DNA from: Planctomycetia bacterium
GTDB taxonomy: Bacteria; Planctomycetota; Planctomycetia; Pirellulales; UBA1268
Reading direction: 5' to 3'
Length of the DNA stretch: 64,000 nt
NCBI GenBank assembly: GCA_046092145.1
Contig: JBJTDB010000374.1
Location: 15,762-79,761 of the forward strand
The translations under genes and the position numbers were made by a program. The notes beneath the pieces are model-generated. The model worked only from the letters and a program-made list of their open reading frames with translations, searched no databases and had not been told where the DNA came from. Positions 54,685 through 62,436 of the stretch are shown here, in pieces; the first letter of the stretch is position 1; every line of letters begins with the position of its first letter.

Positions 54685-55605
54685 TCATTCCAAGTCATAC
54701 AGGGCGTCTGCCTGAACGGCATCGTCCGGGTCGCCGTCGCACACGATCCCGATCCGGTGAAACTCCATCTGAGGCAACTGCTCCGGGCCGGTGTAGGGCC
54801 CGGCCCGAAACTTCCTGGGATAGCTCTCGACATGGCCATCCACGAATACGACGTTCGCACGAACACCCGCGTGCCGAAAATGGATTGCCGGATCCGAGTC
54901 GCTTGGCTTCAGAAGGCCGCCGAGATTCTCCCGGAGGGTGAATGGCGGGGCATAGTAGACGATGGCACTCTCCGCGAATGCGATCGTTCGCTTCGTCTCC
55001 CGAACCTTGGACACCGTATTCCGCTCACATCGGCTCCGGAGCGACGGCTCGTATGTCGGCGGCAGCCAGTCCCAGCAGGTTCCGGGGCCAAGGGCCACGT
55101 TGTAGTCGAAGCCGGTCGACATCTTTCCATACCGCAGTTCGGAGACGGCCGTCGGGCCGAAGTTCGGACACTGGTAGGCCTGCACGTTTCCTTCCATGAA
55201 GGGCGTCATCGACCCTTTCTCGAAATTCAGACGATCCGTCAGGCTCGGTTGATTTTCATTGACCTCACCAAACCAATAGATGCTCTTGCCCGGATAGGGG
55301 TTCGCCCACGGGTTGGCAAGCGTCCCGGCAATCCGGGCCTCGTCATCGACCTTCCATGGCGGGAAGAAGGAGTTGTTCGCGGTCACGTAGCCGTGCAGGG
55401 CGATCCCCAGCTGCCGCAGGTTGCTTGCGCAACTGGTTCGGCGCGATGCTTCCCGCGCCGACTGCACCCCCGGCAGCAGAAGCCCCACGAGCACTCCGAT
55501 CGTCGAAATCACGACGAGCAATTCCACGAGCGAAAATCCTGCCGGCCTTCGGGCCTGCGCAGCGGCGGGGCCACGGCCCGCCATGCATGCGATGCGCGCG
55601 TTCAT
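54685..55605 (-). CDS. DUF1559 protein with prepilin-type N-terminal cleavage/methylation segment
   Basis: [45 protein letters not shown] is the canonical Planctomycetota DUF1559 N-terminus. GGGAGG lies 5 nt before ATG 55605. Confidence 0.9.
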
Positions 55606-56455
55606 GAATACCTCCCTGCGGCCATCGGTGGCGTGGCTCCAGGGCGCACGGCGGCGCCCTTGCCTGCACGAACGACGGCCAGTCGATCCAATCGCCTCAC
55701 CGGCCCACACGCGCGGGCCGTGCCCGTGACACCGCCCTCGCGGCGACACGCGCTCCTCTCGAACACTGGTAGGTCTTCTGACTCCCAGGCTCGGTCGGCT
55801 GCAGCCTTCTCGCACCGCACCGTCGCAACGATGCATGCAATGGCTTGAACACAGCCGGCCTTTTTCCCGAGACCGAGGGCTTCCCTCGGTTCGGAAATCG
55901 CCCGGATACAGCGGCGGGGCCGTCCCGGAATCGCACCGGAGTTCCCTGTTTGCCGCCGAAAACCAGATGCTTTCGACGGCCACCAGGCTCGGCGGCAAAG
56001 TCTACGGGTCGTGCCGGTCGTGTCAACCAACGCCGGCAACGCCCGCACGACCGTCACGGTTTATCAGGCCGAGCCTGTCACCTGTCAAAGGCTGCGGGTC
56101 ACGGTGAGAACACGCACGAGACTCTGACGGTTGATCGGCCTCGCGCCGCACCGCTTGCCGGCGCGGAACGCGCGGCATTTCTTGCCCACGCGTCACCACA
56201 AGTCCTTCGGCGAAAAATACTTGGAGCGTGTTCAAGCCGCTTTCGCCAAGTCGCCGATAGGCCACATGTCCCCCGGGGCATCACTGTGCCCGTCGGGCAA
56301 CCAGGGGGCGGCAGTCACCTGCGATCGATCGAGTCACGGAATGGCTCGACAGGCCTGCCGTAGAAGAGTTCGTGGATCACAACCTCGGGATGACAAGACT
56401 CGCGAACGGGACGAAGCATTCTCGCGTGATCCGCAAGCAAAGGAGATGTGGCTCG

Positions 56456-57226
56456 ATGAAGCGTATGATGTTCCTCGGTGCGCTGATTCTCGGTGTTACC
56501 GTCTGTACCCAGTCCTATGGTTTCGAGCTCCTTGATCGGATGCTCGGCCACCATCGGGGCTGCTGTGATTCGTGCTGTGAGCCCGGCTGCGATGCCGGCA
56601 AGGGGTGCTGCGAACCGGGCTGCGGAGCCGGCAACGGCTGTGCGGAACCGGCCTGCGGCGCTGGCAATGGCTGTGCGGAGCCCGCTTGCGGTGCCGGCAA
56701 CGGCTGCTGCGAGCCGAGCTGCGGTGCGGCTTCGTGCTGCGGCGTTCGGAAGAAGTGCGACCTGTTCGGCGGGCTGAAGGGCCTGTTCGAGAAGTGCAAG
56801 GCGAAGCATCGTGGCTGCTGCGACAGCTGCTGCGATGAGCCCGATTGCGGTGCTGGCAACGGCTGCTGCGAGCCCGCTTGCGGTGCTGGCAACGGCTGCT
56901 GCGAGCCCGCTTGCGGTGCTGGCAACGGCTGCTGCGAGCCGAGCTGCGGTGCCGCCTCGTGCTGCGGTGTCCGGAAGAAGCACACGCCGATTGCTGATCT
57001 CCTCCGGGCGATCCATGACGCGAAGAAGTGCCGCCGGAGCTGCTGCGACAGCTGCTGCAACGAGCCCGACTGCGGTGCTGGCTGCGAGCCCGCCTGCGGT
57101 GCCGGCAACGGCTGCTGCGAGCCGGCCTGCGGTGCGAACCAGGCTGCCCCGACCCCCGATGCCTCGGCGTCGGTCAAGGGAACGAGCAAGGTCGTCGCGG
57201 TGAGCCGCATGGTCGAGATCAAGTGA
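56456..57226 (+). CDS. secreted modular cysteine-rich repeat protein (about 46 Cys in 256 aa)
   Basis: The signal peptide MKRMMFLGALILGVTVCTQSYG is followed by three modules. Each module has a helical linker (LLDRMLGHHRG, LKGLFEKCKAKHRG, LLRAIHDAKKCRRS), then CCDSCC, then 11-aa units EPxCGAGNGC(C/A). The first two modules close with EPSCGAASCCGVRKK. Confidence 0.75.
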   Translation: MKRMMFLGALILGVTVCTQSYGFELLDRMLGHHRGCCDSCCEPGCDAGKGCCEPGCGAGNGCAEPACGAGNGCAEPACGAGNGCCEPSCGAASCCGVRKKCDLFGGLKGLFEKCKAKHRGCCDSCCDEPDCGAGNGCCEPACGAGNGCCEPACGAGNGCCEPSCGAASCCGVRKKHTPIADLLRAIHDAKKCRRSCCDSCCNEPDCGAGCEPACGAGNGCCEPACGANQAAPTPDASASVKGTSKVVAVSRMVEIK

Positions 57227-57278
57227 GTTGAGGGCAGGTAGGTCGATCGGAGATCTGTTGCCCGACTTCGGCCAGTGA

Positions 57279-57315
57279 GCTCCGCCCGGGAGGAAACTCC
57301 CGGGCGGAGTTTTTT
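57279..57315 (+). terminator. canonical rho-independent terminator
   Basis: gctccgcccgggag-gaaa-ctcccgggcggag followed by tttttt, 52 nt after the Cys-rich gene stop. The TAA stop of the convergent GTPase-like gene (57314-57316) lies in the T-tract. Confidence 0.8.
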
Positions 57316-59140
57316 ACGTTTTGAGTCGGCCGAGTGTGGTGGCGGGCTCGTCGAGGCCGGCGGCGAGCGAGCGGGCCTCGCGGGCGATTCGATCGCCGGC
57401 ATCGATCGAGCGGCTGATGGTGTCGGCGGCGTCGGCGAAATCCGAGAGCAGTGGATCGACCAGCCGTGCCGCGGGGAGGCGGGCCATCAGCGACGTGATG
57501 TCTCGGTGCAAGCCGGCTCGCACCCATGTGAAGAGCAGCCATCGCAGCACGAGCCCCCACAGGATGATCCAGACGAGCGATTCCTCGAGGAAGGCGACGC
57601 CATCGACCCGCCGCCCCTCCCAGAGATGTCCGTAGAAGTAGCTCCAGCCCGCGCGGCCGAGCACGACGACGATCAGCGACGCGAAGAGGATTTCGAATCC
57701 CCAGCGGAGCACGGGGCCATCGACGCGGCGGCGGCGCTCGCTCACCAGCCGCTCGATTCCCGACGCGAGCCACCGGCCGGTTCGATCGAGAACCGCGCCG
57801 GCCGTTTCGCCGGTCCGCGCATCATCCAGCCTCGCCCGCCCCACGAGCGGCTCGACGATCTTCGCCCGCGCCGCATGGCCCACGAGGATGCTTCGCGACT
57901 GCTCGACCTCGGCCGCGGAAAGCCCGAGCTCCTCCACCGCGTGCCACGCCCCGTGCCCGGTCGCGACCTGCTCCGGCGCGTTGCCGGCCAGCAGCCGCCC
58001 GATCAAGCCTCCCCCGGGCCGCATCCGCGTCCAGAACGATCCGATCGCGGAAACCGTATGCAGAAACATCGCGAACGGCCCGCCGTGCCAACGATCGACG
58101 AGCTCGTCGGCCAAAAGCCGCTGCCATGCCGTGCGATTGGTCTGCAGCGTCTCCTCGATCGACCGCCCGAGCAGCCCCTCCAGCCGCGCCCGCTCCGTCT
58201 TCACACCGGCAGCCAGCCGCGCGACCGGCTCCCGCAGAGGATCGATCTGCGCGGCCGCCTGCCCCATGAACCAGGTGGCCAGATCGAGTGCTCCGGTCCG
58301 CCGCACCCGCCGCGCCGCGCGTCCGACGAGTTCCTCGTCGATCGCCGAGACGAGTTCCCGGAAGCCGGGTTCCGGCGCGAGCCCGGCCGCGGCCCGCCGC
58401 GCCGCATCGAGGGCGTCGAGCCGGAAGATCCTTGGCACCACGAACCCCTGCGACTCCAGTTCCCGCCTCCAGTCGTCGCGGATGTCGGGGTCGCGCGAGG
58501 CATGAGACTGCACGAAGAGCAGCGGCCGCCCCGGGGCGAAGGCCTGCAGTTCCCGGGCCACGATCCACGACCTGTATTTCTGCGCCGTGGCGACCAAGAG
58601 CAGCACGTCGCACACCGGGAGCACGGCCGCGAGCATGTCGCGGTTGCGATTGGCATCGCTCGGGCGAGGCGGGTGATCGCCCTCTCGGTGCGGCTCGTCT
58701 GGCTGCGTGTCGGGATCGGGGCAGTCGATGAGCACGATGTTGGCCACGGCCGGGGCATCGCTGCGGACGACGCGGGCCTGCATCGCGTCGATCGGCAGCC
58801 ACGAGCAATCGATCTCCTGGGAGACGACCACGACGGGCGTCGTCGTCGTCGGCCTCGCGACATCGCTCGCGGCCGTCACGTCGCGGCCGGTCAACGCGTT
58901 GACGAGCGTGCTCTTCCCGGTGCCGGTGCCACCGATGACGCCCACCACCAGCATCCGGGCAAGCTCGCGCCGCGTGCGATCGAGCCTCGGCGAAAGCTGC
59001 TCCCACTCCGAGCGGATCCGCCGCGCCGGCGGCCAGTCAGGCCCCGAGCCGACCCATCGCGAAAGCGACTCGACGAGTTCGTCGAAGCTCGTGAAATCGA
59101 TGCCGGGCTCCGGCGCGTCGGTGGAAGGAACGTCGTTCAT
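57314..59140 (-). CDS. P-loop GTPase-like protein with C-terminal membrane hairpin (dynamin-like/DUF697-like)
   Basis: Walker A GVIGGTGTGKSTLVNALTG. Two hydrophobic helices lie near residues 480-540 (FEILFASLIVVVLG, LVWIILWGLVLRWLLFTWV). ATG 59140 forms an ATGA overlap with the upstream partner. Confidence 0.7.
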   Translation of the reverse strand: MNDVPSTDAPEPGIDFTSFDELVESLSRWVGSGPDWPPARRIRSEWEQLSPRLDRTRRELARMLVVGVIGGTGTGKSTLVNALTGRDVTAASDVARPTTTTPVVVVSQEIDCSWLPIDAMQARVVRSDAPAVANIVLIDCPDPDTQPDEPHREGDHPPRPSDANRNRDMLAAVLPVCDVLLLVATAQKYRSWIVARELQAFAPGRPLLFVQSHASRDPDIRDDWRRELESQGFVVPRIFRLDALDAARRAAAGLAPEPGFRELVSAIDEELVGRAARRVRRTGALDLATWFMGQAAAQIDPLREPVARLAAGVKTERARLEGLLGRSIEETLQTNRTAWQRLLADELVDRWHGGPFAMFLHTVSAIGSFWTRMRPGGGLIGRLLAGNAPEQVATGHGAWHAVEELGLSAAEVEQSRSILVGHAARAKIVEPLVGRARLDDARTGETAGAVLDRTGRWLASGIERLVSERRRRVDGPVLRWGFEILFASLIVVVLGRAGWSYFYGHLWEGRRVDGVAFLEESLVWIILWGLVLRWLLFTWVRAGLHRDITSLMARLPAARLVDPLLSDFADAADTISRSIDAGDRIAREARSLAAGLDEPATTLGRLKT

Positions 59141-60975
59141 CGGGCCAGCTCCCGGCCGCATTCGAGGAGAAGGCTGCGGGCCCTGGCGACCTCGGGCCGT
59201 GACGCAGCCTCGGCGAGCCGTTCGATCCGCTCGAGGCGGTCGCCGAGCACGACGTCGCGGATCGTCTCGGCGAGCACGCGCCTGCGGCCGGCCGACCATC
59301 CCGCGAAGAGCCGTTCGATGAGCGGGCGAATGCCGCGCGAGGCCGCCGCGACGGCCCCCTCGCCGGCCAGCGGCGCCGCCACGGTCACGCCCACATCGAG
59401 CATGGAGTGCAGCACGCCTGCGGCTGCCGGAATCGCGGCCGAACCGACGTTGAACAGCGCGATCGTCATCACCGGCCGTGCGATCGAGCCGACCGTCAGG
59501 CCCGCCAGCACCGCCTTCACCATGCCGGGGTTCTCGGCGGCGAACCGATCGAGTTCGGTCCGCACGAACGTCCGGTAGTCGTCCGACACCAGCGGCAGCG
59601 CCGCATGACGCCGTTCGAGGTCGGCATACCATGCGGCCCGGTCGGCCTGCACGAGCCGATCCTCGAGCATGGCGGCCAGTTTCGGCTGCGCTCGGCAGAT
59701 GCCGTCGAGCCGATCGACGAAGTCGCCGAGCGCCTGCTTGAGCGAGGCCAGTTCGACCGTTGCAAAATCGTCCCGCTTTTCCGAATCGGTGCGGAGCAGG
59801 CCGGCCCACCGCCCGGCCACTCGCACGGCGCGGCCCACCTGGCGATACCCGCGGCTCACGGCGAGGTCGAAGCCCGATCGCCGCGGCTCGAGCCACTCCC
59901 AGATCTCGTTCCACACGATCTCCCGCGGCGCGGCCGGCATCTCCACCCGCACACGGCTCTGGTCGGTGAGCAGACGGCGGGCATCCTGCCAGCCACGCGA
60001 CGACGCCTCGACGGCATCGAGCCAGGCAGCCGCACCCGCGGCCGGATCGAGCACGACGCGAAACGCCCCCTCCATCGATCGCATCTTGATGCGGTCGAAG
60101 TCGCAGTCGATCAGCCGCTGTCGCAGGTCGGCCGAGCCGCCGTCGGGCGAAAACTCGGGCATGGCGTGAAAGCTGATCCGACCCTCCGACGCAGCCTTGA
60201 AATCGAATGGCGAGGCATAGACAGCCGCCGGCTCGGCCCCCGTCTCGACGACGAACGTCCGCAGCCATCCCGCGATCACCTGCCGCTGGGCGGGCCACTC
60301 GACCATGTTGAAGACCACGATGATCGTCTTGCGTGCCGCGGCCGCGGCGGTGAAAAAATCGCGAACGGCCGCGTCGTTGTATTTCTGCTGGGTGAGCACA
60401 GCCACGATCACGTCGCACGCGTTGCGGACGAGTTCGGCCCGCTGCCAGTTGTCGCGAAGCGTGCCATCGATGTCGGGCGTGTCGAGGAGCACGAGCCGCT
60501 CGGGCTGGGTGCCGCCGGCATCCTCGCGCCACACGAGCGTGTCGGTGTCGGTCGGATCGAGGGCGTCGTCCTCCGACGACCACGGCTTCGGTGTGAATCC
60601 CGGAAAGAGCGAGGCGATGTCGAGCCGCGACGACAGGCCTCGGGGCAGGCTGACGACGGGATGTCGGGTCTTGGCCGCCTCGGGCACCGAGCGGCTGATC
60701 TCGCTGCCGACCAGCGCGTTGGCGATGAGGCTCTTGCCGGTGTTCGTGCCGCCGCAGACGGCCGCCACGAGGAGTGGCTCGCGATCGACCTGCGGCCCGA
60801 GCTTGCCGAAGAGGGCGCCGTGCCAGTCGGAGGATGCCGGAGCGGGCGCACCGAGTTCGCGGCCCAGCGGCTCGAGGGCGGCGAGACTCTGGCAGAGTTC
60901 ACGGACACATTCCGACCACGCGGCGAAGCTCGTCGTGGCGCCGGGACCGCGGGTGGATGGGGGGGCGTCGTGCAC
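59137..60975 (-). CDS. P-loop GTPase-like protein (dynamin-like), upstream partner
   Basis: Walker [20 protein letters not shown] with [11 protein letters not shown], and a large helical C-terminal half with a hydrophobic patch ([24 protein letters not shown]). GTG start at 60975 with no clear SD. Confidence 0.7.
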
Positions 60976-61964: not shown

Positions 61965-62094
61965 CGGTGAGGGGCTGCCCCTCGCCCCCTCACGCCATTC
62001 CGCGTTTGGCAAACCCTGACGATTTTTCCGTCAAGAACGGTCGTGCCGACTGCCGATACCTGTGAGACGACCGGTTTTCAGGGGGGACAATCAA

Positions 62095-62436
62095 ATGAAA
62101 CGGCACCTGTTTGCCGCCGCGGCGATCGTCGCCGGGGCGATGCTTTTCACGGCCGACGACGCCCGCGCCCAGCAGCCTTTCGCCGGAACGCAGGCCTACG
62201 GCTACCAGTGGGGCTCCTCGTACAACACCCACGATTGGAATCGGCTCTACCACTATCCGTATGTGTGGTATCCGCAGAATTTCTACGCCGACGGCTACTT
62301 CCAGAGTGCCAACGATCTCTACTACCGGTATCCGCAGGAGATGCGGGTGCCGGTCTACAACCGCCAGTGGCACAACGAGTATCCGAAGTCCCGCCGCTAT
62401 CACCAGGGCCACCACTTCCATCTCGACGTGTTCTAG
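62095..62436 (+). CDS. small secreted Tyr/Trp/His-rich protein
   Basis: Signal peptide MKRHLFAAAAIVAGAMLFTADDARA. The 88-aa mature part has about 15 Tyr, 4 Trp and 7 His (YHYPYVWYPQNFYADGYF...YYRYP...RRYHQGHHFHLDVF). Confidence 0.65.
   Translation: MKRHLFAAAAIVAGAMLFTADDARAQQPFAGTQAYGYQWGSSYNTHDWNRLYHYPYVWYPQNFYADGYFQSANDLYYRYPQEMRVPVYNRQWHNEYPKSRRYHQGHHFHLDVF

Follow-up and report, generated by a model that had tools for sequence, protein, structure and literature searches.

A family of cysteine-rich repeat proteins in Planctomycetota, its structured 5′ leader and its candidate role in a crosslinked envelope or matrix

A cysteine-rich gene and its family

A 64,000-nucleotide (nt) stretch of DNA from a Planctomycetia bacterium of the order Pirellulales (GenBank assembly GCA_046092145.1, contig JBJTDB010000374.1, positions 15,762 to 79,761 of the forward strand), referred to here as the window and numbered from its first letter, contains at 56456-57226 an open reading frame (ORF) for a repeat-built protein of 256 amino acids (aa), 47 of which are cysteine (Cys; 18.4%). 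When the predicted signal peptide is removed, Cys accounts for 46 of 234 residues (19.7%). This ORF is a real, conserved gene of a large unnamed family, and it forms a stand-alone transcription unit with a near-perfect Shine-Dalgarno sequence (AAGGAG, 9 nt upstream of the ATG at 56456). Its product is read here, with a probability of about 40%, as a disulfide-crosslinkable envelope or matrix protein resembling the keratin-associated proteins. The features of the locus are listed in Table 1.

Table 1. Features of the Cys-rich gene and its surroundings in window coordinates (pLDDT, predicted local distance difference test score; UTR, untranslated region; N16, 16-nt spacer)
Feature	Position	Strand	Description and basis
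DUF1559/N-terminal-methylation (prepilin-type) gene	54685-55605	-	followed by a 101-aa ORF and a methyltransferase gene
Cobalamin riboswitch RF00174	56002-55751	-	65.8 bits, gathering score 31.5, E = 1.5e-15
Promoter TTGACA-N16-TAGACT	56026-55999	-	directly ahead of the cobalamin riboswitch
Two-block promoter motif	56231-56260	+	TTCAAG 56231-56236, 16-nt spacer, GCCGATAG 56253-56260
5′ leader, untranslated	56268-56455	+	~190 nt; conservation, non-triplet indels
Leader P1	56271-56307	+	5′-terminal CCCC/GGGG 56271-56274/56304-56307 around hairpin GGGCAU..GUGCCC 56276-56291; RNAalifold
Leader P2, three-helix stack	56303-56366	+	RNAalifold, covariance model R1, covariation
P2 outer helix	56308-56314/56355-56361	+	GCGGCAG/CUGCCGU
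P2 middle helix	56318-56321/56350-56353	+	CCUG/CAGG
P2 terminal hairpin	56329-56335/56343-56349	+	UCGAGUC/GGCUCGA, 7-nt loop ACGGAAU 56336-56342
Leader P3 helix	56372-56434	+	GUGGAUCA 56372-56379 pairs with UGAUCCGC 56427-56434 and closes a variable 47-nt insert
Shine-Dalgarno AGGAGA, spacer GUGGCUCG, AUG	56441-56458	+	leader conservation
Coding sequence	56456-57226	+	ATG start, 256 aa plus stop
Predicted signal peptide, Sec-type	56456-56521	+	MKRMMFLGALILGVTVCTQSYG; sequence inspection; region conserved family-wide
Mature protein start	56522-56557	+	FELLDRMLGHHR, family motif QSFGFELLDRMLG; alignment conservation
Cys block 1	56558-56740	+	61 aa, 17 Cys, net charge -6; holds array 56573-56727; pLDDT ~40
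Basic linker 1	56741-56809	+	GVRKKCDLFGGLKGLFEKCKAKH; net charge +5; predicted amphipathic helix, residues 105-117 (AlphaFold)
Cys block 2	56810-56962	+	51 aa, 15 Cys, net charge -6; holds near-identical array 56837-56952
Basic linker 2	56963-57043	+	CGVRKKHTPIADLLRAIHDAKKCRRSC; net charge +6; predicted helix, residues 178-194 (AlphaFold)
Cys block 3	57044-57133	+	30 aa, 9 Cys, net charge -5
Cys-free C-terminal tail	57134-57223	+	..APTPDASAS..KVVAVSRMVEIK; conserved in divergent members
3′ UTR and intrinsic terminator	57240-57320	+	GGUCGA..GUUGCCCGACUUCGGCCAGUGAGCU; stem 57277-57312 and U run
Dynamin-like/MMR_HSR1 GTPase gene	57314-60583	-	1089 aa; converges on the terminator region of the Cys-rich gene
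Tyr/Trp/His-rich secreted protein gene	62095-62436	+	113 aa (MKRHLFAAAAIVAG...YHYPYVWYPQNFYADGYF...)

Two arrays of a 33-bp unit are delimited by Tandem Repeats Finder, the first with 4.7 copies at 79% matches and the second with 3.5 copies at 95% matches, together with a 225-bp super-period (56620-57135) that corresponds to the protein module. Each module runs from a helix through a basic patch and CCDSCC to 11-residue units of the form EPxCGAGNGC(C/A), and EPSCGAASCCGVRKK ends modules 1 and 2. An earlier interpretation of this DNA from its letters and ORFs (the sequence-only reading) had described the 33-bp coding repeats, the three modules with this layout and a Cys content of about 18%, all of which were recovered; its figure of one to three units per module needs correction, since module 1 carries four. 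It had also noted the absence of a CxxCH heme motif, and none was found in the 256-aa protein by a regular-expression search. The near-identical units that it placed at about 56840-56950 correspond to the second array, where the units at 56870-56902 and 56903-56935 agree at 33 of 33 positions. The recent expansion or gene conversion that it deduced from them holds locally, for these two units of module 2, but not for the family as a whole. In a comparison of 78 genes, the nearest relative of a repeat unit lay in another genome in 846 of 982 cases and in its own gene in 42 of 982, so the arrays are mostly old and orthologous, and family-wide concerted evolution of the repeats was ruled out. As a separate observation, the units end in either CC or CA (GGCTGCTGCGAG versus GGCTGTGCGGAG; 56630-56700 versus 56860-56900), in a pattern that looks like a 1-nt deletion with a compensating 1-nt insertion 4 nt further on rather than like point substitutions.

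Long ORFs are frequent in the window's GC-rich DNA and are present in all six frames, so the ORF by itself proves nothing. The frame is nevertheless intact in every complete orthologue from species-representative genomes (80 of 80; 82 fetched loci had a full-length match, two of which run off contig ends), from the same ATG to the homologous C-terminal motif, over proteins of 234-292 aa with 10-15 EPxC units and 12-23% Cys. Differences from the window amount to 0.13, 0.15 and 0.34 at codon positions 1, 2 and 3, which makes third positions (only 66% identity) about 2.4 times more variable, and where the window protein has Cys, 89% of the aligned residues are Cys as well. The gene is judged real because of the frame kept in all these orthologues together with the codon-position bias. 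A non-functional origin, either as a non-coding GC-rich repeat that happens to stay open or as the precursor of a modified peptide with repeated cores, is essentially excluded. The spurious long ORFs in all six frames would suit the former, as would three metagenomic proteins on short contigs (P0093, P0096 and P0098) that switch frame within the repeats and continue into Ala/Arg/Leu-rich tails; however, no such tails or other frame-disrupting variants, which the sequence-only reading had named as the sign of a non-coding repeat, occur in the 80 species-representative genomes, and the three cases are most likely assembly errors in the repeats. In addition, homologues with as little as 33% identity still share the signal peptide, the linkers and the tail. 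With regard to a peptide precursor, the repeated units are superficially like those of multi-core precursors, but the N-terminus is Sec-like rather than a leader peptide, and no radical-SAM, YcaO, lanthionine or protease/transporter genes lie nearby in any clade.

A first protein search returned 177 homologues, all of them unnamed or "hypothetical" and from Planctomycetota, including a single one from a cultured organism (Rosistilla oblonga CA51_05110). A relative is encoded in 397 genomes in a scan of one genome per species, and a profile search of the full library gave 521 clusters at 50% identity (E ≤ 0.001), whose named matches are all Planctomycetota, mostly Pirellulales. Across hundreds of species, each locus examined has one copy of the gene. 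No Pfam or NCBIfam model matches the window protein, even at E ≤ 10, and this includes the metallothionein models (0 matches); the sequence-only reading, too, had seen no recognisable metallothionein signature. A search of PDB sequences with the family profile gave nothing at E ≤ 1, and literature searches combining Planctomycetes with cysteine-rich, metallothionein or YTV returned no description of the family. It is therefore a protein family without name, model or structure, and the earlier view of a real, secreted-type protein outside any characterised family stands.

By inspection, the N-terminus shows the features of a signal peptide of the general secretory (Sec) type, with an n-region MKR, a 13-residue hydrophobic core (MMFLGALILGVTV) and S-Y-G at positions -3 to -1, and because of these features the product is probably exported. 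A lipoprotein was considered and ruled out: there is no lipobox, Val precedes the Cys, and the Cys is replaced by Ser in many homologues. At the start of the mature protein, eight positions (Q19, F21, G22, F23, L26, M29, L30 and G31) either never vary or keep their residue in at least 90% of 33 aligned sequences, whose identity goes down to 41%. Conservation down to 33-40% identity covers the signal peptide and the following (L)xSQSFGFELLDRMLG, two or three Cys-rich blocks, basic linkers such as KKHDLFGGLKGLF or (G)GLLxxLF, and the Cys-free tail. The motif DLFGGLKGLF of linker 1 is conserved as well. In the tail, the family motif is APxPPAPxxDPSAS....RRVxQASxxV, and D[PAS]xA occurs within the last 60 residues in 101 of 136 distant representatives. 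The repeat sequence itself differs by clade (CCEPAC, CGCEAAAPS, CCAKPCC or CQKDGC); Cys density and both termini are retained.

The mature protein contains 14 CC and 16 CxxxC motifs and no CxC, and its sole aromatic residues are three Phe, all located outside the Cys blocks. These blocks are rich in Pro (CCxPxC), and the protein is also rich in Gly, Ala and Ser. The profile hidden Markov model search and structure prediction that had been proposed as a check gave, besides the lack of a family match, an AlphaFold model of low confidence (mean pLDDT 49.5, from a 33-sequence alignment). Its only helices comprise the signal peptide with FELLDRML (residues 3-29) and the two linker segments, of which residues 178-194 are the top-scoring internal segment (pLDDT ~76). 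The Cys blocks (pLDDT ~40) are predicted to be disordered. Of 229 distinct full-length members, which have 10 to 62 Cys each, 101 carry an even and 128 an odd number, and Cys and Ala swap freely at the last position of the unit among homologues. The lack of parity and the Cys/Ala exchange make a defined all-disulfide fold unlikely, and a fixed fold of this kind was rejected on the parity counts. The pattern of Cys drift fits a bulk property, which could be either crosslink density or thiolate capacity.

Promoter, leader and terminator

The sequence-only reading had pointed to an unusually long non-coding region of 850 bp upstream of the gene. The 850 bp are correct (55606-56455), but they are occupied by a cobalamin riboswitch on the minus strand, the gene's own promoter and a structured leader. 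Conservation at the promoter (76 loci) is confined to two blocks, TTCAAG(CC) and GCCGATAG, with a variable sequence between them. The motif CAAG-N16-G[CT]CGATA, whose spacer is always 16 nt, stands upstream of the ORF in 122 of the 137 loci with enough upstream sequence. Its distance to the ATG has a median of 197 nt in the 122 loci and amounts to 300-360 nt in distant clades; the motif was found also in the distant clades L001, L164 and L165. The CGATA of the -10 block is invariant in 70 leaders, and GCCGATAG matches the sigma-28 -10 consensus GCCGATAA at seven of eight positions. In the fliC promoter of Pseudomonas aeruginosa, the -35 element is TCTAAAG and the -10 element ends at -8, and the spacer length of sigma-28 promoters is said not to be conserved (PMC12784957, also the source of the consensus). 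Here the -35 block reads TCAAG, not TAAAG, and the distance between the two blocks exceeds that of P. aeruginosa fliC by 2 nt. The promoter thus resembles sigma-28 (FliA) promoters, from which we infer its use by a sigma-28-type factor; with sigma-28 geometry, transcription is predicted to start at about 56268.

Elsewhere in 1.27 Mb of DNA, searched on both strands, CAAG-N16-G[CT]CGATA occurs only three more times, and each occurrence precedes a gene for a secreted protein rich in Tyr, Trp and His. In the window, this Tyr-rich gene sits 36 nt downstream of TCAAG-N16-GCCGATAC (62031-62436). The gene and its promoter arrangement are conserved in loci L014 and L040, and GAAG variants are found in L079, L099 and L142. 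The Tyr-rich protein has 289 matches in Planctomycetes, some of them labelled "calmodulin-binding protein" by NCBI, and no Pfam or NCBIfam model.

The shared promoter raises an alternative that we consider quite improbable, namely that the Cys-rich protein is the thiol-rich partner of the Tyr/Trp/His-rich protein in an adhesive or surface material, for instance a holdfast, that is specific to one life stage. Both proteins would be made in the motile swarmer stage and would react or co-assemble like mussel foot proteins, by thiol-aromatic redox chemistry and charge-driven condensation. Planctomycetes possess flagellated swarmer cells and holdfasts, which suits this proposal, as do the near match to the sigma-28 -10 consensus, the alternation of acidic Cys blocks with basic linkers, and the fact that the Tyr-rich gene, itself a member of a conserved Planctomycetes family, is in several genomes the sole other gene with CAAG-N16-GCCGATA in the 1.27 Mb. 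The argument is circumstantial, however, with a sigma-28 link that derives from motif likeness; the two genes lie 5 kb apart and are transcribed separately, and the acid/base alternation is not universal, as some members have basic Cys blocks (for example, those with CCAKPCC).

Conservation is far stronger in the leader than in the coding sequence. Over most of 56254-56455, the window's base is common to at least 90% of the 76 loci, and in 53 of 80 metagenome loci nhmmer scores above 150 bits ahead of the ORF. Indels among the homologous leaders are not multiples of three, so the region is non-coding. A cmscan of 55500-57400 (E ≤ 10) found no Rfam 15 match to the leader on the plus strand; the cobalamin riboswitch of the opposite strand was its one real match. 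RNAalifold, run on 70 leaders, resolved three domains (P1, P2 and P3). The pairs of P1 are invariant in the 70 sequences, and covariation is therefore silent on it either way. For P2, a covariance model (R1) was built from 37 diverse sequences; it matches once per locus in 79 of 100 sources, each time on the plus strand and ahead of the ORF, and has no other match in 673 kb, the 64-kb window included. In the P2 alignment, 99% of the cells are paired, and double changes occur in 8 of 18 pairs (43 cells), a result equalled by none of 500 shuffles; when the partners are slid by 1-3 columns, one to three such pairs are left. The loop has the form A(C/A)GGA(A/U)U, with a GGA that is invariant in the 37 sequences. 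In P3, two pairs show GC-to-AU double changes (in six and seven sequences), and many G-U intermediates are compatible with the plus strand only. The folding energy of the single sequence is not better than that of shuffled controls (z = 0.22), so the case for structure is carried by covariation. Judged in this way, the leader is a structured RNA with covariation-supported P2 and P3 domains. As far as Rfam 15 and the literature searches can tell, both this RNA and the promoter motif are undescribed.

Near the start codon, AAAGGAGAUGUGGCUCGAUGAAG is essentially invariant in the 70 leaders, and AAAGGAGAYGUKGCUCGAUG, which spans the Shine-Dalgarno sequence, the spacer and the start, is retained even in clades with a different leader. 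The Shine-Dalgarno sequence AAAGGAGA holds a second GGA besides that of the P2 loop, and the 3′ strand of the P2 hairpin recurs in the spacer GUGGCUCGA. When the single sequence is folded to minimum energy, the spacer pairs with UCGAGUCAC of P2b, a pairing that would occlude the start codon and that suggests a two-state switch of the leader. CsrA-type targets, such as hag of Bacillus subtilis, characteristically carry one GGA in a hairpin loop and another in the Shine-Dalgarno sequence. Both features are present here, the first in a covariation-supported hairpin and the second overlapping the Shine-Dalgarno sequence. The hag circuit, which joins a sigma-D promoter to a CsrA-bound leader, is thus similar in its -10 element (7/8) and in the placement of both GGA motifs; it differs from the present case in that the -35 block here is TCAAG and the leader far exceeds, in size and in conservation, what two CsrA sites require. 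Planctomycetes are among the phyla listed for CsrA together with FliW (PMC4682653).

When the promoter, the Tyr-rich protein and the leader are taken together, a composite scheme can be drawn up, which we regard as a long shot. Pirellulales would build a swarmer-stage surface layer of the sigma-28 class, crosslinked through disulfides and aromatic residues and gated by a new class of leader that toggles between P2/GGA and occlusion of the Shine-Dalgarno spacer in response to a CsrA-like protein or a ligand.

A further helix proposed by RNAalifold, in which CCGAUAGCC would act as an anti-Shine-Dalgarno strand, was rejected because CCGAUAGCC is the -10 block of the promoter, upstream of the predicted transcription start, and because three short contigs begin downstream of it. 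These independent contigs (L091, L093 and L094; 1040-1065 nt) have their first base at the equivalent of 56275/56276 and their last within the 3′ UTR, short of the terminator, and they look as transcript assemblies would.

Several clades lack P2 and have a different leader hairpin, GAUCG-RYGGCGACUUCGUCCRY-CGACC, located about 100-150 nt upstream of the ORF (L092, L102, L105, L116, L117, L148-L150, L156, L158, L159, L163, L096 and L001). It shows apparent compensatory changes (GGCGG/CCGCC versus GAUGG/CCAUC), and the Shine-Dalgarno sequence of the P2-less clades lies within a local GGAG..CUCC hairpin. Judging by these features, the gene family seems to have a second type of leader. In addition, one locus (L031, 835-950) has a leader without the central 100 nt (model positions 85-185, that is, most of P2, the 5′ strand of P3 and the variable insert), with promoter, P1 and Shine-Dalgarno region intact; either a natural deletion or faulty assembly could account for it.

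At the other end of the transcription unit, the strong intrinsic terminator described by the sequence-only reading was confirmed as a 16-bp stem with 11 GC pairs, followed by TTTTTT. The 3′ UTR and terminator are at least 80-90% conserved in 73 loci, and the upper stem shows compensatory changes (GGGA/UCCC to GGGG/CCCC). Ahead of the stem, the segment 57240-57276 is 80-100% conserved in the same loci, and its core CGACUUCG turns up again in a marine clade with a different 5′ leader, there within the loop of a conserved hairpin of that leader. A stand-alone gene with a long leader and a strong terminator is typical of ompA and S-layer genes, and mRNAs are known to be stabilised by a stem at their extreme 5′ end. 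The 5′ UTRs of ompA and S-layer genes share with the present leader its length, the stem at the 5′ end and the strong Shine-Dalgarno sequence, but there is no sequence relationship, and a stabilising role of the leader, whose folding energy is unremarkable, is a suggestion drawn from this likeness.

Neighbouring genes

The cobalamin riboswitch and its TTGACA promoter serve the divergent DUF1559 gene, which would place a DUF1559 protein under B12 control. Besides the DUF1559 protein, the neighbours of the Cys-rich gene in the window are a methyltransferase, MoeA and the dynamin-like GTPase. Close relatives have the order methyltransferase, small ORF, DUF1559, gap, Cys-rich gene and, further on, dynamin-like GTPase; in many of them, about 2.4 kb of extra DNA lies between the GTPase gene and the Cys-rich gene. 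A functional link to the DUF1559 operon, the methyltransferase or the GTPase was rejected, as this synteny holds among close relatives only.

Distant clades share a conserved set of divergent genes upstream of the Cys-rich gene, coding for a Cupin_2 protein, for one or two PQQ_2 beta-propeller proteins and for a response regulator. The set occurs in Rosistilla and in loci L001 (4309-9429), L164 (717-5340), L165 (2708-5065), L092, L102, L111, L150, L162 and L163, and not in the clade of the window. The Cupin_2 protein is cytoplasmic and carries the motif CPCGTARRAF...HYHK, and the PQQ_2 propellers are secreted. A functional link between these neighbours and the Cys-rich gene is possible from their gene order. 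LpxB and FloA are also found among the neighbours in other clades. No disulfide-forming, metal-resistance, peptide-maturation or flagellar gene lies near the Cys-rich gene in the clades examined.

Candidate roles of the protein

Metal binding, a crosslinked matrix and a redox buffer, the three functions suggested by the sequence-only reading, cannot be separated by sequence alone. In the favoured interpretation, the thiols would form inter- and intramolecular disulfides after export, by which the chains would be knitted together as a crosslinked envelope or extracellular matrix. Docking to anionic envelope components or to partners may be the task of the basic helices and of the terminal motifs. 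Expression would be driven from the promoter by a sigma-28-type factor, and the leader would either stabilise the mRNA or gate translation, the latter through a GGA-binding protein such as CsrA or through alternative pairing of the Shine-Dalgarno-to-AUG spacer.

A crosslinked matrix is favoured for several reasons. The Pro-rich CC-x-P-x-C composition is of the keratin-associated type; Cys number and position drift without parity, while Cys density and the terminal "handles" persist; the export route ends in an oxidising compartment; and the gene layout is typical of abundant envelope proteins. Moreover, cell-wall preparations of Planctomycetes are reported to be dominated by protein and to contain cysteine-rich (YTV) proteins (PMC8567305; PMC12673574).

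Three known systems are relevant to this interpretation. The high-sulfur keratin-associated proteins of mammalian hair (PF13885), which function by dense intermolecular disulfide crosslinking, likewise have tandem CC-x-P-x-C, 15-25% Cys, a high Pro content and no stable fold of their own. On the other hand, there is no homology and no PF13885 match for the window protein, which is bacterial and has a predicted signal peptide, basic helical linkers and terminal motifs, and its own crosslinking is putative. One family member, P0113, scores above the Pfam threshold for Keratin_B2_2 (30.3 versus 27 bits) and another, P0157, falls below it; the score of P0113 is compositional convergence. Chlamydial OmcA and OmcB, from the same Planctomycetes-Verrucomicrobia-Chlamydiae superphylum, are also exported Cys-rich envelope proteins, which confer rigidity via disulfide crosslinks and are made at a particular developmental stage; the present protein differs from them in lacking a Pfam match and a lipobox and in its repeat architecture. 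The YTV cell-wall proteins (PF07639) belong to the same phylum, are Cys-rich and secreted, and have been recovered in wall preparations of Planctomycetia (Hieu 2008 and Mahajan 2020, as cited in PMC8567305). Unlike them, the present protein has no match to the Pfam model at E ≤ 10 and no YTV in its sequence, and it is much smaller.

The strongest competitor, possible although rather unlikely, is a metallothionein-like protein of the periplasm or the extracellular space, in which reduced thiolates would bind Cu(I), Zn, Cd, Hg or As and the Cys blocks would fold on binding. Such a protein would buffer or store metal outside the cytoplasm, its synthesis being adjusted by the leader, and a periplasmic thiolate metal store would be unusual for bacteria. 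It would account equally well for the composition: the Cys content of the mature protein, its CC and CxxxC pairs, the aromatic-free Cys blocks and the wealth of Gly, Ala and Ser all recall metallothioneins, as does the predicted disorder, which apo-metallothioneins also show. The freedom of the Cys number from parity agrees with metal binding too, and so do the His residues that border the Cys blocks (GHHRGCC, KHRGCC). Csp1 of methanotrophs, an exported Cys-lined copper store, provides a precedent; it is, however, a folded four-helix bundle exported by the twin-arginine translocation (Tat) route, in contrast to a Sec-type protein in which the linkers alone are helical. Apart from the absence of any matching model, metallothioneins differ in that the present protein, at 234 aa, is far longer and Pro-rich, CCxPxC being typical of keratin-associated proteins and rare in metallothioneins. 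A Sec-type rather than Tat-type signal leads to a compartment where thiols are normally oxidised. The gene occurs as one copy per locus in hundreds of species with no metal-resistance genes nearby, its leader matches no known metal riboswitch, and metal binding leaves the conserved termini and the basic helices without a role.

With regard to the crosslinked envelope or matrix protein, several points weigh against it besides the equal fit of a metal-thiolate protein to the composition and the His residues just mentioned. Localisation, thiol redox state and abundance are all deduced from the sequence. The sigma-28 and CsrA assignments are motif resemblances, and no flagellar or csrA gene is present in the sampled DNA (tblastn of the window and 165 loci for flagellin and csrA). 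There is no conserved disulfide-forming or sorting gene among the neighbours, and the family is not reported in the planctomycete cell-wall proteomes consulted (PMC8567305, PMC12673574). This last silence is weak evidence, because tryptic peptides from Cys blocks of 50-60 residues would be hard to detect.

For the regulation of the gene, the findings have two consequences. The promoter motif, common to just one other gene in 1.27 Mb, provides a first handle on an alternative-sigma regulon. The ~190-nt leader is new to Rfam, has solid covariation and is exclusive to the Cys-rich gene in the DNA scanned.

For the biology of the Planctomycetota, the family bears on a long-standing observation. 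According to early chemical work, protein dominates the planctomycete envelope, which is rich in cystine and proline; to our knowledge, only the YTV proteins have so far been tied to this cystine-rich envelope. The family described here, small, probably exported, with about 20% Cys and present in several hundred Planctomycetota species genomes, is a candidate for a missing crosslinking component, one that would be nearly invisible to trypsin-based proteomics. Its homologue in the cultured Rosistilla oblonga makes the candidate testable.

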